64,000 nucleotides of DNA from an uncultured Eubacteriales bacterium (GTDB lineage Bacteria > Bacillota > Clostridia > Oscillospirales > CAG-272), in the NCBI GenBank assembly GCA_900549725.1, contig URPL01000007.1, positions 6,031-70,030 on the forward strand, given 5' to 3'. A model generated the notes under the pieces. The model searched no databases. It saw only the letters and a list, made by a program, of their open reading frames with translations, and was not told the origin of the DNA. Made by a program: the position numbers and the translations under genes. Positions 5,054 through 47,291 of the stretch are shown here, piece after piece. Each line of letters begins with the position of its first letter. Position 1 is the first letter of the stretch.

Positions 5054-6310
5054 TTATGGGATGAGCGCGGCTGCCTTTCCCGCCGCATTTGCACAGGCAA
5101 AGCAGATTTGCAGATTATATCCGCCCGTATAGGCATCCACATCGATCATCTCGCCCGCAAAGTACAGGCCGCTGCAAAGGCGGGATGCCATGGTGCGCGG
5201 GTCGAGCTCGCGGGTGTCAACGCCGCCGCGGGTGACGATGGCTTCGTCAATAGGGCGAAATTTTGTGGGATGCAGCGTAAAATCCTTGATCACGCGGCAC
5301 AGGGCGCGGCGCTGCTCTTTGGTGATCTGATGCACCTTTTGGTGCGGGGGGATACCGCAGCGGGCAATCACCGGGTCGATCAGGGCACGGGGCAGAAGCG
5401 CCCCGAGCGAATTCTGAAAATCGCGGTTTGCATTTTCCGAGAAATCGGAAAGAATGCGCGCATTTAATGTTTTTTCGTCCAGTGCGGGCTTGAAATCCAG
5501 GTGAACGACAAGGCGTGACAGCTCTTTTTCTTCAAGATCGGCGGAGGCGCTGAGAATCATCGGGCCGGAAACGCCGAAATGCGTGAACAGCATTTCCCCA
5601 AAGTCCGAATATACGGTTTTACCGTCCTGCCCGACGGTGATGCGCAGCGCCGTGTTTTTCGGCGCAAGCCCCGCCATTGCCGCACAATCCTTTTCCGCGC
5701 ATTCTATGGGGATGAGGGAAGGGGCGGGAGAAATGATCGTGTGTCCTGCCTCTTCGGCAAAGCGATAGCCGTCTCCGGTGGAGCCGGTTGCGGGATAGGA
5801 AAGCCCGCCGCAGGCAAGGATCACACAGTCTGCCTGTGCCTCCCCGTGCGCTGTGAGGACTCCGCAGCAGCGCGTTTTGTCCTGCGAGAGCAGGAGCCCT
5901 GTTACCGTTCCATGCACAAGCTCTGCGCCGCATCTTGTAAGATAGCGTTTGAGCGCTCCGACGACATCAGCGGCACGGTCCGAGACGGGAAACACGCGAC
6001 CGCCGCGCTCCGTTTTGAGCGGGCAGCCGAGCGATTCGAACAAATCCATGGTGCCCGATGGAGGAAAGGCATGCAGCGCGCTTTGCAAAAAGCGCGGATT
6101 GCGCCGTGTTGCCTCCAAAACCTCGGAAGCGCTGCAGTTGTTGGTGAGATTACAGCGCCCTTTGCCTGTGATCGCCAGCTTTTTCCCGACGCGGTCATTT
6201 TTTTCATACAGGCGCACGGCGGCACCGCTCTCGGCGGCGCGGCAGGCGGCAAGCATGCCCGCAGGGCCCGCGCCCACCACAATCACGCGGCGCTTTTGTT
6301 CAGTGTGCAC
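5054..6310 (-). CDS. NAD(P)/FAD-dependent oxidoreductase, HI0933/BaiN-like flavoprotein
   Basis: Has the dinucleotide-binding motif VIVVGAGPAGMLAA and a C-terminal TGGYNLQ..AG block. The ORF-track N-terminus (to 6424) runs through the upstream rpiR-like gene. I therefore placed the start at in-frame GTG 6310 (VHTEQKRRVIVVGAG), which overlaps the upstream stop. The start remains uncertain. Confidence 0.7.
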   Translation of the reverse strand: MHTEQKRRVIVVGAGPAGMLAACRAAESGAAVRLYEKNDRVGKKLAITGKGRCNLTNNCSASEVLEATRRNPRFLQSALHAFPPSGTMDLFESLGCPLKTERGGRVFPVSDRAADVVGALKRYLTRCGAELVHGTVTGLLLSQDKTRCCGVLTAHGEAQADCVILACGGLSYPATGSTGDGYRFAEEAGHTIISPAPSLIPIECAEKDCAAMAGLAPKNTALRITVGQDGKTVYSDFGEMLFTHFGVSGPMILSASADLEEKELSRLVVHLDFKPALDEKTLNARILSDFSENANRDFQNSLGALLPRALIDPVIARCGIPPHQKVHQITKEQRRALCRVIKDFTLHPTKFRPIDEAIVTRGGVDTRELDPRTMASRLCSGLYFAGEMIDVDAYTGGYNLQICFACANAAGKAAALIP

Positions 6311-7175
6311 CGTCGTCCTCTTTCTTTTCGTATACGTCGAATTGATCCCACATGCCCTCAAGTGTTGAAAACACGGAGCAAACCTCATCGGATTTCTGCC
6401 GCGTGACTGCGGCAATGAGTGCATTGATCAGAGAGAGCGGCGCAACCAGGGAATCCACAAAGGATGCCATATCGCTCTTTGCGGTTAGGGTGTAATCTGC
6501 AAATTCCGTCAAAGGGGAGGCGCTGTTATCCGTGATGGCAAGCGTGTTTGCACCGTGCGCCTGCATATATTCCATGGCGGCGACCACTCTTTTGGAATAC
6601 CGCGGAAAAGAAATGCCGATAAAGAGATCTCCTTTTTTGGCGCGGAAAATCTGTTCGAACACTTCGCTGCGCGAGGTGGTCTGCAGGAGCTTGACATCCT
6701 CAAAAATCATATTGAAATAAAAATAGAGGAAGGAGGCAAGCGCCGAGGAGGAACGCACCCCCATGATATAAATGCGCTTTGCATGCACAATAGCATTCAC
6801 CGTCGCTTCGAAAGCCGCCCCGTTCAGATGTTCCAGGGTATAGCGGATTTTTTCCATATCTGAAGCGAGAATCTTTTCCGGAACGCTGCCGTCCCCGATG
6901 CGGAAATCGGAAACCTCGATGCGCTGCAGGGCGGTGAGCTTGTTGCGGATCAGCTCCTGCAGAGATTTTTGCAGCTCGGGATAACCGTCAAAGCCGAGCT
7001 CATCCGCAAAGCGGACCACCGTTGATTCCGAAACGCCGACCGTTGCGCCCAGGCGCGAGGCGGTCATATAGGCAGCCTTTTCATAATGCTGCAGCATATA
7101 GGTTCCGATGAGTTTCTGTCCTTTGGAAAACCCGCTCATGCGGGCTTCGATCAGCCGCAAAACGTCTGCTTCCAT
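6300..7175 (-). CDS. MurR/RpiR family transcriptional regulator (HTH + SIS domain)
   Basis: 291 aa with an N-terminal HTH (TASRLGATVGVSESTVVRFADELGF) and a C-terminal SIS-type sugar-phosphate-binding region. Confidence 0.8.
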   Translation of the reverse strand: MEADVLRLIEARMSGFSKGQKLIGTYMLQHYEKAAYMTASRLGATVGVSESTVVRFADELGFDGYPELQKSLQELIRNKLTALQRIEVSDFRIGDGSVPEKILASDMEKIRYTLEHLNGAAFEATVNAIVHAKRIYIMGVRSSSALASFLYFYFNMIFEDVKLLQTTSRSEVFEQIFRAKKGDLFIGISFPRYSKRVVAAMEYMQAHGANTLAITDNSASPLTEFADYTLTAKSDMASFVDSLVAPLSLINALIAAVTRQKSDEVCSVFSTLEGMWDQFDVYEKKEDDGAH

Positions 7176-36995: not shown

Positions 36996-37018
36996 AAAAC
37001 CGGAAAAGGAGATATAAC

Positions 37019-37903
37019 ATGCTGACAAAAAAACAATTTGATATTCTTACCGCGCTTGAAGCCGACGCAAAATTGACGCAGCGCGCCTTGGCGCAGAAAA
37101 CGGGCATGTCTCTCGGGACGGCGAATAAAACGCTTGGCGAGCTGAGCGCCCTTGGATATACAAAGGACGGCGCGCTGACGGAAAGCGCCCGTGCAGCGCT
37201 TGAGCCGTATCGCGTGAAGCGGGCAATTTTCATTGCCGCGGGCTTTGGCTCGCGTTTGGTGCCGATCACGCTGAATACCCCAAAGCCTCTGGTGCGCGTC
37301 AAAGGCAGGCGCATCATCGAAAGCCTGCTGGATGCCGTGGTTGCGGCGGGGATTGAGGAAATTTATATTGTGCGCGGGTATCTTTCCGAACAGTTTGACC
37401 AGCTGCTTTATAAATACCCGACGATTAAGTTTATCGAAAACCCGGCGTATAATGAGGCAAACAACATCTCCTCCATGATGTGCGCGCGCTATCTTTTGCA
37501 AAGCGCATATGTTTTTGAAGCGGATCTTTTGCTGTATAACCCGACACTGATTACAAAATATCAATATTCCACCAATTATCTCGGCGTGCCCGTTGCAATG
37601 ACGAACGACTGGTGCTTTACCGTGAAAAACGGCTATATCACGCATCTTGGCGTCGGCGGCAGGGATTGCTGTCATATGTTCGGCATTTCCTATTGGAGCG
37701 CCGAGGACGGCGCAAAGCTTGCAGGGCATATTGAAAAGGTGTATCAGTCGCCCGGCGGGAAAGAGCGCTATTGGGATCAGGTCGCTTTTGACTATTATCC
37801 CTCCGAATATAAAATTTCCGTTCGCGAATGCAGCTTTGAGGATATTGTGGAAATCGATACTTTCCGCGAGCTCAAGCAGTTGGACGAGACATACGATGTA
37901 TAA
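37019..37903 (+). CDS. Winged-HTH fused to LicC-family cytidylyltransferase (phosphocholine/phosphonate-type NTP transferase)
   Basis: The N-terminal ~65 aa are MarR-like wHTH (FDILTALEADAKLTQRALAQKTGMSLGTANKTLGEL). The remainder is LicC-like: AIFIAAGFGSRLVPITLNTPKPLV, YIVRGYLSEQFDQL, YNEANNISS, YWDQV and EIDTFRELKQLD. Confidence 0.8.
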   Translation: MLTKKQFDILTALEADAKLTQRALAQKTGMSLGTANKTLGELSALGYTKDGALTESARAALEPYRVKRAIFIAAGFGSRLVPITLNTPKPLVRVKGRRIIESLLDAVVAAGIEEIYIVRGYLSEQFDQLLYKYPTIKFIENPAYNEANNISSMMCARYLLQSAYVFEADLLLYNPTLITKYQYSTNYLGVPVAMTNDWCFTVKNGYITHLGVGGRDCCHMFGISYWSAEDGAKLAGHIEKVYQSPGGKERYWDQVAFDYYPSEYKISVRECSFEDIVEIDTFRELKQLDETYDV

Positions 37904-37917
37904 AAATCGAAAAAGCG

Positions 37918-37949
37918 AAAAAATGCTCCCCGTGCGGGGAGCATTTTTT
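37918..37949. terminator. Bidirectional intrinsic terminator
   Basis: AAAAAATGCTCCCC / GGGGAGCATTTTTT with loop GTGC, between the convergent licC-like and GH16 genes. Confidence 0.8.
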
Positions 37950-37967
37950 CTGTGTTTCCGTGTTTGT

Positions 37968-39710
37968 TCAGGGGCGCGCCGCGTCGTTTAAATAGATCGG
38001 CGGATAGCTCTGCATATACTCCTTCAGCTGATAGACATGCACATAATCGATGATAAACTCTGCGGGAAAATCGTCAAGATCAAGACTGCCGAGCTTATCG
38101 TCGTTAAAATATGCGCTGTCGGAAGCCATAATCTGCAAAAGCATGTTTCCGGGGGAATCGCTGATGCCCTCGGTCAGGGTGCCGTAGTAATACCCATCCA
38201 CAAAGAAGGAATAGCCCTCTTTGGTCCACAGCATGCCGTAGGTATGATACTCGTTGTCCAGCGTGGAGAGCGGCAAATATGCGCCGAGCTTTGTGTTGGG
38301 TGCGGTACCGGGAACGCGGCTATAAAGATAGGTCTGCGCCACAATACGGTCGTCGTTGTTTTCGGGGCCGTACGGCGTGCCGTTTTCATCCGTTTTCCAT
38401 TGCCATGTTCCGTTTGGCAGAATCTCGGCGGAGCCGCCGGGACGGCCGTGCGTCCATACGGTGGAGGTCATTTGTCCGGAGCGCCCGTTGCTGTCGCGCT
38501 GGCCGGGGTAGCTTTCAAACATATCGACCTCGATCAGCTGCGTGAGATATTCGTTGAAATAACGCGGGTCATTGCGGTGCGCTGCAAATTCTTCAGCCGT
38601 GCGCAATCCGTTTTGATAGCTGCGCATCCAAAAGGCGGTATTTGTGCCGGAGGCGGTGGGCAGCTTGCAACGGATCTCATAATAGCCATAGGTTTGCCAA
38701 AAGCTTTCGGTGGTGTCGATCGCAGGAATTACGCTCTTTGCCTGCCCGTCGCCGTATTTGGTTTCCCTCAGCACAAGGTTGCCGTTGCCGTCCGTATAAA
38801 TATGCTCGGAGAGAAACGCATCAAGATCATTGCCGTATTGCGCTCTGAGCTCTTCCTGCAGCGAGGCAGGCTCCAAGATCAGCTGGTTGAAATCGGCTCT
38901 GCCGTCCAGATAGCGCCAAACGGATTTGTCGTACTCATTTCCGTCAAAATCCTGTACAAAGGTAGGAATCAAAGCGGAGCCGGTTAAAAGATAGCATTCG
39001 GGAGTGCTGTTATAGTAGTTAAACAGGCGGTGCGCCATGGCGGCGGCTTCCGCACGGGTCGCGTTGCCGCGGGGCACGAAGGTGCCGCTTCCTTTGCCGT
39101 ACATCATCTGCATGGCGCTGAGTGCGCTGACAGCCTTGCGTGCCCAGCCGGAAATTTGGGCGGCATCGGTATAGGTTGCTTCCAGATCAACGGAATAGCC
39201 GCTCAGATCAACCTTGCAGTATTTCGAAATGAAGTTATAAAGAATCAAAGCGAGCTGTTCGCGGGTGATATTGTCGTTCGGGGCAAAAATGCCGTCGCCC
39301 ATACCGCTCACGATTTTGTTTTCCGCAGCCCACTGCACGGCGGGGTAAAACCATTTTCCTTCCGGAACATCGGAAAAGTCTGTTGTTTTCGTAACCGTGA
39401 CATCCACGCCGATTTTATTCATCAAGGCGCGCAGAATCTGCACATACATTGCACGGGAGAGCGTGACGGAGGGGTTAAAATAGGCGGAATCGCCCATGTT
39501 TGTCATGATTCCGTTGTCCACAGCCCATTTGATGTCGTTGTATGCCCATCCCTGCCCGACATCGGTCAGGTAGGAAAAGTCATTGAGCGGTCTTGCCCAA
39601 TTGCCCGCGGAAAAAGCGGAGGCGATGAGCGTGCCGCACAAAAGCACCGCGGCAAGCGCAAATGCGCAAAAGCGCAGCGCGCGGGCGGATAACAGGCTTC
39701 TTTTTTTCAT
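37968..39710 (-). CDS. Cell-surface SLH-domain protein with C-terminal GH16-type glycoside hydrolase domain
   Basis: Signal peptide, then three SLH repeats (WAYNDIKWAVDNGIMTNMG.., WFYPAVQWAAENKIVSGMG.., ISGWARKAVSALSAMQMMYGKG..). GH16 beta-bulge-type catalytic motif E-V-D-M-F-E (codons 38514..38531). AAGGAGG SD 11 nt after the kinase stop. Confidence 0.8.
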   Translation of the reverse strand: MKKRSLLSARALRFCAFALAAVLLCGTLIASAFSAGNWARPLNDFSYLTDVGQGWAYNDIKWAVDNGIMTNMGDSAYFNPSVTLSRAMYVQILRALMNKIGVDVTVTKTTDFSDVPEGKWFYPAVQWAAENKIVSGMGDGIFAPNDNITREQLALILYNFISKYCKVDLSGYSVDLEATYTDAAQISGWARKAVSALSAMQMMYGKGSGTFVPRGNATRAEAAAMAHRLFNYYNSTPECYLLTGSALIPTFVQDFDGNEYDKSVWRYLDGRADFNQLILEPASLQEELRAQYGNDLDAFLSEHIYTDGNGNLVLRETKYGDGQAKSVIPAIDTTESFWQTYGYYEIRCKLPTASGTNTAFWMRSYQNGLRTAEEFAAHRNDPRYFNEYLTQLIEVDMFESYPGQRDSNGRSGQMTSTVWTHGRPGGSAEILPNGTWQWKTDENGTPYGPENNDDRIVAQTYLYSRVPGTAPNTKLGAYLPLSTLDNEYHTYGMLWTKEGYSFFVDGYYYGTLTEGISDSPGNMLLQIMASDSAYFNDDKLGSLDLDDFPAEFIIDYVHVYQLKEYMQSYPPIYLNDAARP

Positions 39711-39721
39711 AAATAACCTCC

Positions 39722-41059
39722 TTATTCGTAGCGAATATTGGCTTGCAGGGTTTTAAACGGCGCAAGGGAAGCGGCGGCTGCGCCGAACAGGGCGGCACCG
39801 TAGGCTGCTTCCTCACGGTGCGCGGGAACTTGCATGGGGAGCGTCATGGCGTCTTCAAACAGGCGCCGCAGCACGGCGCTTTTGCGAATGCCGTTGCCCG
39901 AGCCGTACAAATGCTCGGCGGCGGGCAGCCCGAAGGAACGATAATAGTCAAGCAATTCGTTTGCCATGCCGTGCATTACGCCGCCGACAAAATCGGTCGG
40001 GGTGAAATTGCGGTCGGAGAGGTTTTCGATGCTTGCGCGTTTTTTCGGGTCCTCCCGCGTTCCGCAAAAACTGGTGGAAAAGCGGATGGGGTCGGGCAGG
40101 GAAAAGATTTCTTCCGCCAGGCGGTCGATGATGGGATATTGCGGCTCGTCGTGCCCAAAGAGCGCAGCATAGGAACGGAAGAACTGCTCCAGCAGCGCCA
40201 GCGCCCGCCCGCCGCAAAGAGAGCAGCCGCAGACCAGGGAAAGCCCGTCGATATACGGGCGAATCTCACCGCTTTTCACGCCGCTTGGGGCGGCGCAGAT
40301 CACGGAGACCTGGCTTCCCGTGCCGACATTGAATAAAACGGAGCCCTCTGCGCTGCCGACGGTGCCGAGAATGCTTGCCTGGTTATCGCCGATCGCCAAG
40401 GAAACGGGAATGCCGCGATAGGTGCCGAGCGTCTCGGTCTTTGTGCTGACTGGGGGCAGAATCCCGCAGGAAAACAGTGCTTTGCAGGCATTGCGGTCGA
40501 AATCGCCCGCTGCCCTATCATAAAGCCCGAGGCTTGCGGCGTCGCTTGCGTGCATCAGCGGCGTTTTTTTGCCGCACAGGTGCATGGAAAGCGCATCATG
40601 AATCGTGCACAGCTGCCGGGCGCCCGCGGGCACGGTGCCTTCCAGGACGGCATGTGTATGCGTTGCAAGCCCGTATCCCGCGCTGATTGTATATCCCGTG
40701 CACGAACGAATCCTGGCAAGGGTCGTCTCCCCGTTTGCAAGCGGCTGCGCAGCGCGCTGGTCCTGCCAGGTATAAAGCGGGCCAAGGGGTGCGCCGTCTT
40801 TATCAAGATATACAATGCCGTGCATTTGCCCGGTGATGCCGATTGCGGCGATGGGGGCGAAGGCATCGCAAAGCTCGTCGATCATCGAAACGGCTCTGTC
40901 CAAAATGGCAGTTGCATCCTGAACGCGGGCATAGGGCGCAAAGCCCGATAAAAAGGGTTCGGACGGGACGGTCACCGCATGCAGCACGGTGCCGTCGCCG
41001 CTGTTTACCACAACGGCGCTGAGCGTCGTTGTGCCGATATCAAAACCGATGGTATGCAT
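39722..41059 (-). CDS. FGGY-family carbohydrate kinase (short, sedoheptulokinase/xylulokinase-like)
   Basis: 445 aa with GFDIGTTTLSAVVV, IGITGQMHGIVYLD, YTWQDQRA and IGDNQASILGT, which are FGGY signatures. Starts 8 nt after the GRE stop. Confidence 0.75.
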   Translation of the reverse strand: MHTIGFDIGTTTLSAVVVNSGDGTVLHAVTVPSEPFLSGFAPYARVQDATAILDRAVSMIDELCDAFAPIAAIGITGQMHGIVYLDKDGAPLGPLYTWQDQRAAQPLANGETTLARIRSCTGYTISAGYGLATHTHAVLEGTVPAGARQLCTIHDALSMHLCGKKTPLMHASDAASLGLYDRAAGDFDRNACKALFSCGILPPVSTKTETLGTYRGIPVSLAIGDNQASILGTVGSAEGSVLFNVGTGSQVSVICAAPSGVKSGEIRPYIDGLSLVCGCSLCGGRALALLEQFFRSYAALFGHDEPQYPIIDRLAEEIFSLPDPIRFSTSFCGTREDPKKRASIENLSDRNFTPTDFVGGVMHGMANELLDYYRSFGLPAAEHLYGSGNGIRKSAVLRRLFEDAMTLPMQVPAHREEAAYGAALFGAAAASLAPFKTLQANIRYE

Positions 41060-41067
41060 GGGGCACC

Positions 41068-43434
41068 TCAGCAGCGGGTGGAGCCAAGATCGAGGCGTGT
41101 GATGATATCCTGCTGAATTGCGGGGGAAAGGTCCAAAAAGTTGACAAAGGTGCCGTGAATGCGCATGATGTAAACGCCGCTGGGCGCATATTTTTTCGGA
41201 TCTGCCAAAACCTTGCGCAGGATTTCCGGCGTTGTTACATTGACATACAGATAAAACGGCGCGATTTTTTTATAATAGTCGTTGAAGAACAGCGGCTTGC
41301 AGACGCGGTCCGCAAACTGCTCGCCCTTTTCCTCATAGCTTTTTGCGGGGAAGAGGTTGGGGTCGATGCCGAAATGAGAGGCATATCCGCCGCAGAATTT
41401 CTCAAAGGGCAGCTTCCAGGTGGAAAGCGTACGGAAGCCGAGCCCCATGTGTGCGTCTCCGTACAGCGGGTCAACGCCGTAGTTGAGCATATCACGGGCT
41501 TTGCGTCCCGTGGGCAGCGCGCCCACCCAATAGCCGTAGAGCAAATGGGTGGAGGGGGTGGAAAAATCGGGGCGGAACGGGTTGCCCCAGTTATTCTTTG
41601 CGGCGCGCACCATATCGGCGATTTTGGAGGTCAGGGCAACGGTTTCTTCATCCGCCTCATCCTCATTGTTGCCGAATTTCGGGCAGGCAAGCAGCCATTG
41701 CCGCAGCTCTTCATAGCCCTCAAAGTTGCATTTCAGCGCGTCGAGCAGCGTTTTCGCATCCTGCGGGCGCTCGCGCAGCAAGTGATCGACTGCGACAAAG
41801 GAATCCGCAACAACGGTATTGCCGTGAATCAGGCAGCCGCTGCCGTTATATTCCGTGCCCTGATGCTCCGTGTCGCGCATGTCGTAGCCGCTCTTTACGC
41901 CGCCCATGAGAATGGAGAGAAACGGCACGGGCAAAAGCGAAACGGCATGCGTCGCCTCATTGGCGGACTCGGTCATTTTATCAATATAGAATTGCGCGTT
42001 TTCATAGAAGCGCTCACGCAGATGCGTCAGCTTTTCTATAGCGCTTTCCTTTTTGCATACGGAGCCGATCTCTTTGCCCGTAATGGCGGAAATGCCGTCG
42101 GTGAGGGTCAGCTCCAAAATTTTTCCGAGATTGAGCCAGCAGTTTGTTGTGTTGCCGTTGTCCTTGCCCATAATCAGCGGCTCCTGGCAGCCGGCAATGG
42201 AATAATCGGGCAGATCGCTCTCCTTGACGCCGGCGCGGCGCAGCACCGCAAATACGGAATCATCATTGAACAGCGAGGGCGTCAGGGCGCCGGGGGTGAA
42301 GAAGAAGCGGCCCATTTCGCGGTAGAGCTCGGCGGGGGTGTTTTTGTGCAGCTTTACGGAGAGAATCGGCTGCGGCAAATTCATATCATAATATGCATCA
42401 AACAGCGCATAGGAGGTCGGGCAGGTCAGGTCGTTTCCTGCGGTATCTCTGCCGCCGATGATGAGATTTTGAGAGATTGCCCAGGAGCGGTCGCCGACAT
42501 TGAAGAAGACCAAAAGATGCTTGAGAAGCGCCGCCGCGTCTGCACGGTCAAGTCCGTCATGCGCGCGGTAGGGCTCAAAAATGCGATCCGCATTGCCAAC
42601 GGAAAAGGCAAAGGGGTTAGGGGATTGCTCAAGGCACATCAGCTGCCAGCACAGCATAAAGGACTGAATGGCCTCATACATCGTCTCGGCGCCGTAGGCG
42701 GGGACCTTTTCCAGCGTCTGCACCATTTGCTGCAGCTGCGTGCGGCGCGGCGCATCGGCGGTTTTCATTTGCTCTCTTGCGATGGCTGCATAGCGCCCTG
42801 CCAAAATCAAAAGAGCATCCACACTGAGCAGCATTGCGCGGTATTCCGCAGCCTGTGCGTCGTCGCAGGGGGCGCTTTGGCGCTGCTCGATCTCTTCGCG
42901 CACAGCGCAGATGCCGCGGGCGAGAACCCGGCGCATATCGGGAATGACATGGCCGGTCACCTGCTCCATAAAATAGGCGACCTCGGCGGTATATTGTTCG
43001 CTCTTTGCATAGGTTGTGCTCAGCGCCTCGGCATAGGCGCCGTTGGCATCGTGCGCGCGGACGGCGTCGATGCGTTCCTTGGTGATTTCCTCGTTCGGTT
43101 CAATATCTCCGAGCACCGCAATCGGGTCGCAATAGCCCGCGAAGGATTCCACACGGAAGGATGGGTTGATCAGGGCATAGCTGCGCGCAAAGGCGTCGCG
43201 CTGTGTTCCCGCAAAAATCGCGTTTTCGGAAATGGAGAGCGGCAGCTCCTCGCATACCTTTTTCAAAAGATATGCCGCCTGTACCGCGGCGGGTTCATCC
43301 TTACATTCCGCTTCATGCGCAATGCGGATTTCCTTGGATAAAAACCATCCGTCCAGACGCTTGCGCGCGCGCTCCTCCTTGAAAAGCGCCTTTGCCATTT
43401 CGGTCAGGCGCTCGGCTGTTGCAATTTTGTTCAT
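41068..43434 (-). CDS. Glycyl radical enzyme, PFL2/eliminase-like, unassigned specificity
   Basis: 788 aa. Cys loop IAGCQEP (Cys416 codon 42187..42189, Glu418). C-terminal glycine loop YIMRIHGTFVNFLDLSPAIQQDIITR (Gly761 codon 41152..41154), which aligns to the canonical RVxG[YF]..F..L...Q.dii.R. The N-terminal region is typical of the PFL2 family. Confidence 0.88.
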   Translation of the reverse strand: MNKIATAERLTEMAKALFKEERARKRLDGWFLSKEIRIAHEAECKDEPAAVQAAYLLKKVCEELPLSISENAIFAGTQRDAFARSYALINPSFRVESFAGYCDPIAVLGDIEPNEEITKERIDAVRAHDANGAYAEALSTTYAKSEQYTAEVAYFMEQVTGHVIPDMRRVLARGICAVREEIEQRQSAPCDDAQAAEYRAMLLSVDALLILAGRYAAIAREQMKTADAPRRTQLQQMVQTLEKVPAYGAETMYEAIQSFMLCWQLMCLEQSPNPFAFSVGNADRIFEPYRAHDGLDRADAAALLKHLLVFFNVGDRSWAISQNLIIGGRDTAGNDLTCPTSYALFDAYYDMNLPQPILSVKLHKNTPAELYREMGRFFFTPGALTPSLFNDDSVFAVLRRAGVKESDLPDYSIAGCQEPLIMGKDNGNTTNCWLNLGKILELTLTDGISAITGKEIGSVCKKESAIEKLTHLRERFYENAQFYIDKMTESANEATHAVSLLPVPFLSILMGGVKSGYDMRDTEHQGTEYNGSGCLIHGNTVVADSFVAVDHLLRERPQDAKTLLDALKCNFEGYEELRQWLLACPKFGNNEDEADEETVALTSKIADMVRAAKNNWGNPFRPDFSTPSTHLLYGYWVGALPTGRKARDMLNYGVDPLYGDAHMGLGFRTLSTWKLPFEKFCGGYASHFGIDPNLFPAKSYEEKGEQFADRVCKPLFFNDYYKKIAPFYLYVNVTTPEILRKVLADPKKYAPSGVYIMRIHGTFVNFLDLSPAIQQDIITRLDLGSTRC

Positions 43435-43455
43435 GGTAATGCTTCCTTTCTGTGC

Positions 43456-44178
43456 TTAGGTATGGACAATGTGAATTCCGGCATCGGTAAAGGTTTGCTC
43501 AAAAAAGGCTACGGTATCCTTTGAGACAAACGCATCGTGCATTTGATAGGGCTTGCCGATCTTGCTCCATTTCTCTTTGCCGTATTCGTGATATGGCAGA
43601 ATCTCAACGGAAAATTTTCCCGGAAGCGCTGCAAAAAAGCGGAGAAAGCCCTTGGCGTCTTCTTTTGCATCGTTGAAGGTGTGAATCAGGGGGATGCGAA
43701 CCACGGTCGGCACCGGGGAAGCGGAAAGCGCCGCAAAATTCTCTTTGAGGCCGTCAAGCGTGCCGCCGGTCACGGCATGCAGCTTTTCCGGGTCATAGTG
43801 CTTGCAGTCACACATCAGGCAGTCAAGCCATGGCAAAAGCGCATTGAGATGCGGCAGGGAAAGATTGCTTTCGATCGCCGTTGAAATACCGCTTTCGTGC
43901 AGCCCCTGCAAGAGCTCCCGCGCAGCTTGCCATTGCAGCAGGACCTCGCCGCCAGTCAGCGTCACGCCGCCGCCGTCGATCATCATCGGCAGGCAGCTTT
44001 TTGCCTCCCTGATCAAATCTGCGGTGTCGCATTCCTTTGCGGCGCGGCCGGGGTCCATCCCCTCGGGATTGGAGCACCAGGGGCAATGCCAGTTGCAGCC
44101 CTGCAAATGGTAGACAAGGCGATTGCCCGGGCCGTCCTGTGAGTAGTTGAATCCTTTTTGAAAATAGCGTATTTTCAT
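43456..44178 (-). CDS. Glycyl-radical enzyme activating protein (radical SAM), PFL-AE-like short form
   Basis: CX3CX2C motif CNWHCPWC, DGPGNR and a GGVTLTGGE SAM motif. About 240 aa with no ferredoxin-like Cys-rich insert. Start set at the second ATG 44178 (AAGGA SD). ATG 44211 would lie at or next to the predicted TSS. Confidence 0.85.
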   Translation of the reverse strand: MKIRYFQKGFNYSQDGPGNRLVYHLQGCNWHCPWCSNPEGMDPGRAAKECDTADLIREAKSCLPMMIDGGGVTLTGGEVLLQWQAARELLQGLHESGISTAIESNLSLPHLNALLPWLDCLMCDCKHYDPEKLHAVTGGTLDGLKENFAALSASPVPTVVRIPLIHTFNDAKEDAKGFLRFFAALPGKFSVEILPYHEYGKEKWSKIGKPYQMHDAFVSKDTVAFFEQTFTDAGIHIVHT

Positions 44179-44219
44179 GGCAGCAGTCCTTATCGGGAAC
44201 GGTTTTCCCATCTTTATTC

Positions 44220-44248
44220 ATTATAGCAAAGCCATATGAAAAAGGCAA
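44220..44248 (-). promoter_or_regulatory. Sigma-A promoter with extended -10 (TTGCCT-17-TGcTATAAT) for the GRE operon
   Basis: Read on the minus strand: -35 TTGCCT (44243..44248), a 17-nt spacer ending in TGC, and -10 TATAAT (44220..44225). Confidence 0.55.
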
Positions 44249-44321
44249 TAGAGCACAGGAAAAAACGCGCTTTTTTTCGCAAAAAAACGGCTGCACACCG
44301 CGAAGGTGAATAACTGTTTTC

Positions 44322-45737
44322 TTATGCGCCTGCCTGCGCTTTTTTTACAACTGCGACCCTGGAAAAATCAAAATGCAGATAATAAAGAAGCATTGTCACG
44401 GCGCAGCAGAACCACCCCAGCGGATACCCAAGACCGATGTGCAAAAGTTCATTGGAGATATAGTGCGACATGGTGAAAAGATAGATCTGCCGAATGCCGA
44501 TAAAGCAGGTGAGCATGATAATCATCGGGGCGCGGCTGTTGCCCGCTCCCCGCAGAGAGGCGGCAAAGATCTGATTGACCGAGCAGCACAAATAAAACGG
44601 CGTGATGCCGCGCAAAAGGCGCGTCGCCTGTGCAACGACGGCTGCATCCCGATTGAACACGGACGCCCAAAACGGAGCAAACAGCATCACGGGCAGAATG
44701 ATCAAAGCGGTGCAAAACAGCGACATGAAAAAGGCTGTGCGGGTACCGCGCTTTGCGCGGTCGACATTGCCGCTGCCGAGATTTTGACCCACAAAGGTGG
44801 AAACGGAGAGCGCCAGTGACTGCACCGGCAAAAAGATGAATTGGTCGATCTTTGTATAAGAGGTCCATGCGCCGAGGCAAATTTCCTGTGCGCCGTTTGC
44901 GCCGCCGATATAGCTTTGCACAAAAACATTGGAAAGCGCGGTCAGCGCCATTTGCAGTGCCGAGGGGATGCCGATGCGGATGATTTCCTTTAGCATCTGT
45001 GCATCGAAACGGAGCGCCGAGAGCTCTAATTTGACACAGGAAGTTGTGCGAAAAAGGACAAACAAAACCATTGCGGCGCTGAGCAGCTGCCCGATGACCG
45101 TTGCAAGCGCAACGCCCGCAACGCCCATGGAAAAAACGTTGACAAACAAAAGATCAAGCACGGTATTGGCAGCGGCGCAGACGATCAGAAACAGCAGCGG
45201 CCGCACGGAATCCCCGACGGCGCGCAGAATGCCCGCGCCCATGTTATAAAGCATCAGCCCTCCGACCCCGGAAAAATATATAATCAGATAGGTTTTTGCA
45301 TGGGGGTAGACTGCGCCGAGCTCTCCCTCGTTTGCAAGCATCAGCCGCAAAATCCAAGGGGTGAGCAAAACACCGAGCAGCGTGAAAGCCACGATCAGAC
45401 ACAGCGTCATCAGCATGGAGGAATGCACGGCTTTTTTGACCCCCGCTGTATCCTTTGCGCCGAAATGCTGCGAAATGACGACGCCCGCGCCGCTTGCAAG
45501 ACCGGAAAAAAGCCCGATGAGGATATTGATGATCGGTCCGACGCTTCCGACGGCGGCGTATGCTTCGTTGATGCCTGTTTGCCCGATGACCCAGGTATCC
45601 ACCATATTGTAAAACTGCTGAAACAGGTTGCCGATGAGCAGCGGCAGCGCAAAAAGCAGCAGATTTTTGGTGATAGAGCCTTTTGTCATATCAAGATCGC
45701 GGTTTTTGCGCAGAAATGAAAGTGCCTTTGTTGCCAT
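44322..45737 (-). CDS. MATE-family efflux transporter
   Basis: 471 aa and 12 TM helices, with the typical MATE N-terminus (ITKNLLLFALPLLIGNLFQQFYNMVDTWVIGQ). Confidence 0.85.
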   Translation of the reverse strand: MATKALSFLRKNRDLDMTKGSITKNLLLFALPLLIGNLFQQFYNMVDTWVIGQTGINEAYAAVGSVGPIINILIGLFSGLASGAGVVISQHFGAKDTAGVKKAVHSSMLMTLCLIVAFTLLGVLLTPWILRLMLANEGELGAVYPHAKTYLIIYFSGVGGLMLYNMGAGILRAVGDSVRPLLFLIVCAAANTVLDLLFVNVFSMGVAGVALATVIGQLLSAAMVLFVLFRTTSCVKLELSALRFDAQMLKEIIRIGIPSALQMALTALSNVFVQSYIGGANGAQEICLGAWTSYTKIDQFIFLPVQSLALSVSTFVGQNLGSGNVDRAKRGTRTAFFMSLFCTALIILPVMLFAPFWASVFNRDAAVVAQATRLLRGITPFYLCCSVNQIFAASLRGAGNSRAPMIIMLTCFIGIRQIYLFTMSHYISNELLHIGLGYPLGWFCCAVTMLLYYLHFDFSRVAVVKKAQAGA

Positions 45738-45838
45738 GGCGAAAAGAAAACCGTCCTTTTCCGGAAAATTGCCTTTATTATAGCATAACTCGCTGAAAAT
45801 GACAAGATTTTTCCCGCACGGAAAATAGCGTTTTTCTC

Positions 45839-45867
45839 TTGACCTTTCCCTGCAAAAGTGGTATGCT
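45839..45867 (+). promoter_or_regulatory. Sigma-A promoter TTGACC-17-TGgTATGCT upstream of trkA
   Basis: Read directly from the sequence. About 65-nt 5'UTR with an AAAGGAG SD before GTG 45933. Confidence 0.5.
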
Positions 45868-45932
45868 TTATGCTGGATTGATATAGGGATCGATTTTCTG
45901 ATATCGACCTAAAACATCAAAGGAGAGCTATT

Positions 45933-47291
45933 GTGAAAATCGTGATTGCCGGTATCGGCAAGGTCGGTGCAAGCCTGACAAGGCAGCTATGCGACGAAGG
46001 GAACGATCTGACGCTGATCGATTCGGACGCGGCTGTTTTGGAAGCAACGATGGAGCAGCATGATGTGATGGCAGTCGTGGGGAATTGCGCAACGCGCACG
46101 ACTTTGGAGCAGGCGGGCATTGAGGATGCGGACCTTTTGATCGCTTCCAGCGGGGAAGACGAGGTGAACCTTTTGTGCTGCATGGTGGCGCATGCACTGA
46201 ACCCGAAGCTTCATACCATTGCCCGCATCCGCAATCCGGAGTATACCGATCAGATCTGGCAGATGCGCGATACCTTTGCGCTTTCCCTGACGGTGAATCC
46301 GGAGCGGCGCGCTGCGCAGGAGATCGAGCGGCTTTTGAAATACCCCGGCTTCCTTAAGCGCGACAGCTTTGCAAAGGGGCGTTCGGAAATTGTGGAGCTG
46401 CGCATTGAGCGGGATTCGCTGCTTTGCAATGTGCCGCTGAAGGATATGGGGCGGCTTACAAAATGCAAAACGCTGGTTTGCGTGGTGTTACGCCACGGAG
46501 AAGCCATTGTTCCTTCGGGCGATTTTGTGCTTGCAGAGGGGGATCGCATTTTTGTTACGGCACCTCTGAATGAATTGACGGCGCTCTTGCGCAGCCTGAA
46601 AATCACAACACGCCGCGTGCGCCGCGTGCTTATCTGCGGCGGAGGCAAGATCGGATATTATCTTGCAGCGCAGCTCAGCCGTGACGGTGTTGCCGTGCAG
46701 CTTTTGGAGCGGGATGAGAAAAAATGTGAGCAGCTTGCTGCGCAGCTTCCGCAGGCGGATGTTGTGTGCGCGGACGCTGCCAATTTGCAGATTTTGGAGA
46801 GCGAGGGCATTGCAAACTGCGATGCATTTGTGATGCTGACGGGGATGGACGAGCTGAATATCATCCTTTCTCTGTACGGCAAAAATCTCGGTGTGCCGCA
46901 GGTGATTGCAAAGCTTTCGCATTTTAACAACAATGCCGTGCTGAACGGACTTTCGCTCGGCAGCATCGTGTGCCCGGATGAGCTGTGCTGCAGCACGATC
47001 GTGCGTTATGTCCGCGCAATGAAAAATCAGGCGGGAGCTGCGCAATCGGTGCATTTTATTGCCGATCGCCGCGCGGAGGCGGCGGAATTTCGCATTGAAA
47101 AAGGAGCACCGCATTGTGAGGAACCCTTAAAGCAGCTCAGGTTGCGCGACAATCTGCTGATCGCCTCCATTACGCGGCACGGCAAAACGGTGATCCCGGA
47201 CGGCGAAAGCTACTTTACCGAGGGCGACAGCGTTGTGGTTGTGACAACGGGAAAAAATGTATTGTATCGCTTTTCCGATATTTTTGCCTGA
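45933..47291 (+). CDS. trkA: Trk system potassium uptake protein TrkA (two RCK/NAD-binding modules)
   Basis: KIVIAGIGKVGASL and a second VLICGGGKIGYYLA Rossmann motif. 452 aa. Confidence 0.9.
   Translation: MKIVIAGIGKVGASLTRQLCDEGNDLTLIDSDAAVLEATMEQHDVMAVVGNCATRTTLEQAGIEDADLLIASSGEDEVNLLCCMVAHALNPKLHTIARIRNPEYTDQIWQMRDTFALSLTVNPERRAAQEIERLLKYPGFLKRDSFAKGRSEIVELRIERDSLLCNVPLKDMGRLTKCKTLVCVVLRHGEAIVPSGDFVLAEGDRIFVTAPLNELTALLRSLKITTRRVRRVLICGGGKIGYYLAAQLSRDGVAVQLLERDEKKCEQLAAQLPQADVVCADAANLQILESEGIANCDAFVMLTGMDELNIILSLYGKNLGVPQVIAKLSHFNNNAVLNGLSLGSIVCPDELCCSTIVRYVRAMKNQAGAAQSVHFIADRRAEAAEFRIEKGAPHCEEPLKQLRLRDNLLIASITRHGKTVIPDGESYFTEGDSVVVVTTGKNVLYRFSDIFA

Follow-up and report, generated by a model that had tools for sequence, protein, structure and literature searches.

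An unassigned glycyl radical enzyme clade conserved with an FGGY kinase in gut and rumen Clostridia

Here, we describe a glycyl radical enzyme (GRE) locus in a 64,000-nt stretch of DNA (the window) on contig URPL01000007.1 of an uncultured Eubacteriales bacterium of the CAG-272 lineage. Four genes lie in the order activase, GRE, FGGY kinase and SLH/GH16 protein (Table 1), with the Pfam domains Radical_SAM/Fer4_12, PFL-like (PF02901, 362 bits), FGGY_N/FGGY_C, and SLH plus Glyco_hydro_16, respectively. The intergenic gaps are 21, 8 and 11 nt, and the last of these, between the kinase and the SLH/GH16 gene, is GGAGGTTATTT, immediately 3' of the kinase TAA stop. Upstream of the activase, a predicted promoter (44248..44220) scores 10/12 in a consensus scan; three other sites in the scanned region tie with it, but it is the only one of the tied sites with a perfect TATAAT and an upstream TG. 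The predicted terminator at the other end has a folding energy of -29.5 kcal/mol (z = -8.1 versus shuffles). At the three internal junctions the consensus scan found no 10/12 promoter and no comparably strong terminator, and there is no Rfam match, riboswitches included, within 37000-46000. These sequence signals predict that the four genes form one promoter-to-terminator unit, and the open reading frames (ORFs), the scan and the folding agree on this point with the initial annotation, which had described four closely packed, co-directional genes bracketed by a single promoter and a single terminator. The terminator is shared with a convergent gene on the plus strand.

Table 1 Features of the GRE locus, in window coordinates
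Feature	Coordinates	Strand	Remarks
Activase ORF	43456-44211 (longest form, 251 aa); likely 43456..44178 (240 aa)	minus	Basis: ORF list, Pfam
GRE	41068..43434	minus	788 aa; uncharacterised clade
FGGY kinase	39722..41059	minus	445 aa; divergent FGGY family
SLH/GH16	37968..39710	minus	580 aa; signal peptide, three SLH repeats, divergent GH16 domain
Predicted extended -10 sigma-70-type promoter	44220..44248	minus	Upstream of activase; TTGCCT, 17 nt, TGcTATAAT
Predicted bidirectional intrinsic terminator	37917..37950	both	15-bp stem, T-runs on each strand
Convergent gene	37019-37903	plus	Winged-helix helix-turn-helix (HTH; HTH_24/MarR-like) fused to a nucleotidyl-transferase domain

The window GRE carries the residues expected for radical chemistry. 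Gly761 in the Gly loop (RIHG761TF; RIHGTF at 41146-41163) aligns with the G of RVAGY in glycerol dehydratase (1r8w), YbiW and PflD, and Cys416 in the Cys loop AGCQEPL (AGCQEP at 42178-42195) aligns with Cys433 of glycerol dehydratase, Glu418 with E435, and the histidine of the GHV motif (His162; TGHVIP at 42940-42957) with His164. A Cys-X-Glu motif on the Cys loop is common to GRE 1,2-eliminases and isomerases (PMC13450708), and C416-Q-E418 is invariant in the family. Across an alignment of 72 family members, 282 of the 788 positions are conserved at >=98%, including AGCQEPL, TGHVIP and RIHGTFVNFLDLS, and the Gly loop RIHGTF, a variant of the RVxG[FWY]-type loop, does not vary. Just 2 of 294 near-invariant columns deviate in the window GRE, which argues that it is not decaying; it looks active and under selection, as predicted from sequence and model. 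The Pfam Gly_radical model (PF01228) matches neither the window GRE nor any of its 120 best homologues (P0001-P0120), although sister clades at <=43% identity do score. The model is thus blind to this clade, and GRE censuses that require the domain would miss the family.

An AlphaFold2 (AF2) model of the GRE (predicted local distance difference test score (pLDDT) 82.7, predicted template modelling score (pTM) 0.88) has the PFL-like ten-stranded barrel fold and matched more than 50 GRE chains at template modelling (TM) scores of 0.75-0.83. It is about equally similar to 2f3o, 1r8w, HypD, propanediol dehydratase, PflD, CutC and IslA (TM ~0.8, 19-23% identity). Some highly conserved segments have a pLDDT <50, for example RSYALINPSFRVESFAGYCDP; they cover residues 84-106, 627-634 and 650-668 (about 43117-43185, 41533-41556 and 41431-41487 in the window) and may represent mobile elements specific to the family, close to the active site or to the surface where the activase docks.

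Overall, identity to solved or characterised GREs is 16-28% (23-28% for glycerol dehydratase, PflD and YbiW, and 16-23% by Foldseek for the rest), and the best PDB sequence matches reach ~200 bits at 23-28% identity. Against every NCBIfam equivalog the score is far under the cut-off, for example HypD (186 vs 1100), HpsG (177 vs 1000), PflD (159 vs 1109), CutC (147 vs 1050) and TIGR01774 (241 vs 678). Membership in the GD, PD, HypD, CutC, IslA/IseG, HpsG/HpfG, HplG and YbiW/PflD subclasses was rejected on these two grounds, the equivalog scores and the low identity. A search of 1.84 billion cluster representatives resolved the GRE family into two or three 50%-identity clusters (61% and 57% identical to the window GRE), with sparse sister clusters at 43%, 36% and 32-34% identity and the general GRE background below these at ~200 bits. 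By our own tally, some two dozen full-length 50%-identity clusters outscore every characterised GRE. Hence, judged by sequence and model, the window protein would be a true eliminase/isomerase-type GRE outside every assigned clade, in line with the initial annotation, which had placed it in no clade of characterised function.

To describe the surroundings of the family we used one genome per species, which gave 80 loci with GREs of 59-83% identity, almost all from gut and rumen Acutalibacteraceae, Oscillospiraceae, Lachnospiraceae and relatives; the denominators below are the loci with enough flank. The activase lies upstream of the GRE in 75/75 loci, and an FGGY kinase lies downstream in 69/75, within 200 nt in 62, so that the kinase has held up as a conserved neighbour of the GRE. 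The usual fourth gene, found after the kinase in 55/70 loci, encodes a 352-aa cupin resembling phosphomannose isomerase (PMI). It scores 80 bits against TIGR00218 (cut-off 116), as a divergent class I PMI, and aligns with the B. subtilis enzyme 1qwr, sharing the motifs QAHPD, GKAESW and VHA, which we take to be the metal-ligand motifs of type-I PMIs. A further gene, c4 (226 aa), lies 3' of the PMI-like gene in 29 loci and has no Pfam or NCBIfam match. Activase, GRE and FGGY kinase are therefore a conserved, uncharacterised and self-contained module. Interrupted GRE genes were also seen: the GRE of locus L041 has an in-frame TAG at codon 145 (5865-5867), and two independent assemblies, L090 (about 7110-7130) and L091, share a 1-nt deletion at the same site in the invariant GHV codons; these genes are either pseudogenes or recoded.

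The activase is minimal, as the initial annotation had it, with a single CX3CX2C motif (CNWHCPWC, 44074-44097) and no auxiliary Cys-rich, ferredoxin-like insert. Its match to TIGR02494 (E = 7e-48) consists of two stretches that skip the insert, and both this match and that to TIGR02493 (E = 1e-40) are under the curated cut-offs. The start codon of the longest ORF (ATG 44211) lies just 9 nt past the -10 hexamer, whereas ATG 44178 has an AAGGA 8 nt upstream, is the choice of the gene callers and fits the alignments of homologues, which set in at residues 8-14 of the longer frame. The protein is therefore most likely 240 aa long. Two kinds of activase exist within the GRE family: the majority measure ~235-250 aa, with 4-9 Cys and without the auxiliary-cluster insert, and one subclade (L034, L036, L040, L041, L048, L051, L059, L068, L073 and L076) is ~290-300 aa with 10-15 Cys. 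This implies that a ferredoxin-like domain was lost or gained within the family.

The kinase has both FGGY domains (PF00370, 79 bits; PF02782, 27.2 bits), and its DIGTTT, GDNQAS and GTGSQ motifs are invariant and cover the phosphate, catalytic (GDNQAS) and adenosine motifs. The invariant residues are D7, G9-T10, G224-D-N-Q-A228 and G246-T-G248, and the window copy deviates at 2 of 77 near-invariant columns. Its model (pLDDT 94) has an ASKHA/FGGY fold, with TM scores of 0.82-0.85 to xylulokinase, glycerol kinase and gluconate kinase, at 19-24% identity to solved kinases. From these motifs and the model, the kinase looks active. It matches none of the substrate-defined equivalogs XylB, GlpK, GntK, AraB, FucK, RhaB and LsrK, the best score being that for XylB (101 bits, cut-off 380). 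For kinase and GRE alike, the NCBIfam, PDB and Foldseek searches produced matches at the level of the superfamily only. A role as an ASKHA-type ATP-dependent electron activator (BcrAD/BadFG-like) was considered and rejected, since the protein has one invariant Cys only and all kinase motifs are intact. Some homologues of 572-580 aa (P0130, P0126, P0203 and P0213) are fused to an N-terminal MerR-type HTH, and one of these (P0130; L092, 2710-4452) lies between GH3 and GH32 genes. Such a fusion may be a sugar-sensing kinase-regulator.

The fourth gene of the window tells a different story. Its GH16 domain (PF00722, 42.7 bits, cut-off 22) occupies 37968-38990 (~330 aa), is longer than typical GH16 domains and weakly matches the laminarinases 3iln and 5wut; the catalytic ExDxxE motif is intact (EVDMFE, residues 394-399, 38514-38531). 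There is no compositional sign of horizontal transfer, with a third-position GC content (GC3) of 0.65 vs 0.64-0.69 in the neighbours. Among 5.8 billion proteins, the full-length homologues form a single cluster that is 98% identical and evidently of the same species, and all remaining matches are limited to the SLH third. No SLH or GH16 gene lies beside the GRE in any of the 80 related loci, including the sister locus L001 (83% GRE identity), which reads MATE-activase-GRE-kinase followed by a 680-bp spacer and feoAB. For these reasons, the absence from related loci and the confinement to one species, we regard the GH16 gene as lineage-specific and outside the conserved system. It is probably co-transcribed, yet a species-specific gene that landed between kinase and terminator and is functionally not required. 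The initial annotation had counted the GH16 protein as a member of the GRE system and linked the substrate to beta-glycans through it, while naming homologous loci that lack the kinase and GH16 as a reason to give up its hypothesis; all 80 loci lack GH16, and neither proposal is supported. The kinase half of its substrate hypothesis fares better, with the kinase at 69/75 loci.

Fuller loci point to carbohydrate metabolism. In Hydrogenoanaerobacterium (L085/L076) the module is accompanied by ROK proteins, a GmhA-like SIS isomerase, a DUF4432 mutarotase-like protein, a CUT2 monosaccharide ABC transporter and a two-component regulator. L068 has a true xylulokinase (XylB) and a CUT2 transporter, and L073 has two GH32 genes and a xylose-isomerase-like TIM barrel. 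The glycosidase that recurs beside the module is GH32, not GH16; it is found in L035, L048, L051, L059 and L073 (~5/80 loci), as well as in L090/91. More distant GREs, at 32-36% identity, also adjoin FGGY kinases, cupin isomerases and sugar ABC transporters. L094 combines XylB with a CUT1 transporter. L101 (5108-17679; GRE 32% identical) has two tandem GRE-activase pairs with an FGGY kinase, an aldehyde:ferredoxin oxidoreductase, a 2-hydroxyacid dehydrogenase and a cupin glucose-6-P isomerase (GPI), and L099 (24-14499; GRE 32% identical) has a RuBisCO-like protein, split thiamine pyrophosphate (TPP) enzymes, SIS, PfkB, lyxose isomerase, an FGGY kinase and fructose-bisphosphate (FBP) aldolase. 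A GRE together with an FGGY kinase and an aldose-ketose isomerase is thus a combination that recurs across a wider superclade.

We propose, with a probability of roughly 0.6, that the module is a kinase-coupled radical C-O cleavage pathway for a monosaccharide, polyol or anhydro-sugar, with the GH16 protein outside it. Gene order, conservation, motifs and folds are observed; from them we infer the chemistry, the class of substrate and whether kinase or GRE acts first, as follows. The [4Fe-4S] cluster of the activase, together with S-adenosylmethionine (SAM), would remove a hydrogen from the GRE residue Gly761, and the resulting glycyl radical would generate a thiyl radical at Cys416. Cys416 would then take a hydrogen from a hydroxyl-bearing carbon of the sugar, polyol or anhydro-alditol, while Glu418 of the Cys-X-Glu motif would deprotonate that hydroxyl, assisted by the GHV histidine, His162. 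Cleavage of the adjacent C-O bond, to water or to a ring oxygen, would follow, and return of the hydrogen would give a deoxy-carbonyl product. The FGGY kinase would phosphorylate a primary hydroxyl of the substrate, in the role played by the phosphotransferase system (PTS) for E. coli YbiW/PflD, or, less likely, of the product. In most relatives the PMI-like cupin would act as an aldose/ketose-phosphate isomerase that joins the pathway to glycolysis.

Several observations weigh against this proposal. The evidence names no substrate, and the type of bond cleaved is read from motifs only, because the GRE is no closer to dehydratases than to C-N/C-S lyases or isomerases. Across the related loci, no aldolase, dehydrogenase or transporter recurs as a consistent neighbour, and the flanks outside the four-gene core hold mostly housekeeping genes (pyrimidine biosynthesis, alanine racemase, panCD, clpPX, tRNA synthetases), which are uninformative. 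The kinase was not found in 6/75 loci, including GH32-linked ones, so a phosphorylated substrate may not be an absolute requirement of the GRE, which weakens the kinase-first order. Finally, the 64-kb window yielded no gene for the PMI-like cupin, and the pathway may thus lack a step in this organism or rely on a gene in another part of its genome.

The initial annotation had put forward a route in which the surface GH16 protein frees a beta-glycan (anhydro-)sugar that is imported, phosphorylated by the FGGY kinase and passed to the GRE. The 11-nt kinase-GH16 gap with its own Shine-Dalgarno sequence, the lack of a promoter or terminator between the two genes, the matching GC3, the intact EVDMFE, and the signal peptide and SLH anchor all fit such a route. 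Yet we consider it very unlikely, given that the gene is found in 0/80 related loci and not in the 83%-identity sister, that its sole full-length homologue is from the same species, that the unit includes no transporter, and that the module is kept in lineages without any adjacent glycosidase. The module could instead handle a ketose or another sugar released by GH32 from fructans or an unusual fructoside, possibly a heptulose. GH32 adjoins the module in the loci listed above, the MerR-fused kinase homologue in L092 sits between GH3 and GH32 genes, L085 has the GmhA-like SIS isomerase, and one kinase homologue is labelled sedoheptulokinase by JGI. However, that label is an automatic annotation, and NCBIfam gives the kinase only the weak XylB-like score (101 vs 380). 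Moreover, GH32 is present in just ~6% of loci, three of them without the kinase, and no GH32 gene was found in the window; we therefore rate this link as unlikely.

In another alternative the GRE, like glycerol or propanediol dehydratase, would dehydrate an unphosphorylated polyol to a deoxy-aldehyde, with the kinase acting on the product or in a parallel branch. Glycerol dehydratase 1r8w is the top sequence match (198.6 bits) and second to 2f3o by fold, with propanediol dehydratase 9rco third and fourth; His164 of glycerol dehydratase and the CXE motif are conserved, an aldehyde:ferredoxin oxidoreductase lies beside the distant relative in L101, and six loci have no kinase. Against this, the N-G-H-S segment and Asp447 of glycerol dehydratase align to N-P-F-A and Thr430, the TIGR01774 score is 241 vs a cut-off of 678, and genes for a 1,3-propanediol-type dehydrogenase, an aldehyde dehydrogenase or a microcompartment are absent. 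The tight adjacency of the kinase fits the phosphosugar precedent better, and a free-polyol substrate seems improbable to us. It is also conceivable that the window copy is a decaying remnant that lost its PMI-like gene and no longer functions, in view of the missing cupin gene in the 64 kb and the GRE pseudogenes elsewhere (L041, L090/91). But the three module genes, like the promoter, Shine-Dalgarno sequences and terminator, are intact, and nearly all family-invariant residues are kept; the three genes are laid out identically in the sister species (L001), and a gene for the isomerase could lie in another part of the genome. We give this explanation almost no weight.

The GREs drive key anaerobic chemistries of the gut, such as trimethylamine (TMA) formation, the breakdown of hydroxyproline and sulfonates, and the use of anhydroglucitol. 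Nevertheless, whole GRE clades remain unassigned according to a 2026 review (PMC13450708). What is new here is an unassigned and widespread clade with a distinctive partner set; it is highly conserved and occurs in at least 80 species of Oscillospirales and Lachnospirales from gut and rumen. Because the partners, an FGGY kinase and a PMI-like isomerase, are fixed, the search for the substrate is tractable, starting with the kinase. Once the substrate is identified, the metabolic map of gut Clostridia that are poorly cultured would gain a carbohydrate route, and taking GH16 out of the model averts a misleading beta-glycan hypothesis. A further-reaching idea, which we hold only tentatively and with the odds against it, is that this clade and its FGGY-linked sister clades form a new substrate class of sugar-active GREs. 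Such a class may amount to a second 'radical glycolysis', dependent on a kinase, for a gut sugar, polyol or anhydro-sugar that is common but has been overlooked; in a more radical version, the phosphate installed by the kinase may be the leaving group in a radical 1,2-elimination.

A literature search of incomplete coverage found no link between a GRE and an FGGY kinase, and the 2026 review describes no such enzyme (PMC13450708). The closest working analogue is the YbiW/PflD system. These GREs are C-O lyases/isomerases that ring-open PTS-phosphorylated 1,5-anhydrohexitols (1,5-anhydroglucitol-6-P and 1,5-anhydromannitol-6-P) to 1-deoxy-fructose-6-P in 'anhydroglycolysis' (PMC13450708, PMC12441222). 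The initial annotation was right that they act on anhydrohexitol-6-phosphates delivered by a PTS, but they are ring-opening isomerases and not, as it had suggested, dehydratases (PMC13450708, PMC12441222). They share with the window GRE the PFL-like type, a Cys loop of the CXE form and a cognate activase, and the folds agree at TM 0.78-0.80. Their substrate is phosphorylated at a primary hydroxyl before radical C-O cleavage, the same order that we propose for the window GRE. However, assignment to this system fails on identity (24% to YbiW, 28% to PflD), on the PflD equivalog score (159 vs 1109) and on the missing PTS and fructose-6-P aldolase (FSA) genes: the E. coli loci carry frwCBD/ptsA/fsaB and fsaA, whereas no PTS or fructose-6-P aldolase occurs in the window or in related loci, which have the FGGY kinase, and in relatives the PMI-like cupin, in place of them. 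The Gly loop also differs (RIHGT vs RVAGY).

By sequence, the closest relatives are the glycerol and propanediol dehydratases. C. butyricum DhaB1 glycerol dehydratase (1r8w) is the best-scoring solved relative (199 bits, ~23% identity) with the same overall fold, and 1,2-propanediol dehydratase (5i2g, 9rco) scores 175 bits. Although His164, Cys433 and Glu435 are conserved, the NGHS segment and Asp447, presumably substrate-contacting, are replaced by NPFA and Thr430. This changed pocket segment and the model score argue against membership, judging from the alignment, and the locus has no diol-pathway dehydrogenases or microcompartment genes and an activase without the ferredoxin-like insert. 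A. fulgidus PFL2 (2f3o), a GRE without an assigned function (PMC13450708), is the top Foldseek match (TM 0.83) and the second sequence match (192 bits, 23% identity). It is archaeal, lies in another genomic context and offers no functional information to transfer. A last comparison concerns the layout of the pathway and not the GRE itself. The L-rhamnose RhaMABD and L-fucose FucUIKA systems are sugar pathways built from an isomerase, an FGGY kinase and an aldolase. By analogy, the fuller GRE loci resemble them in having an FGGY kinase, an aldose-ketose isomerase, a mutarotase-like protein and a CUT2 transporter. They differ in having no aldolase; the GRE would stand in place of the C-C-cleaving step, and a PMI-type cupin would serve as the isomerase.

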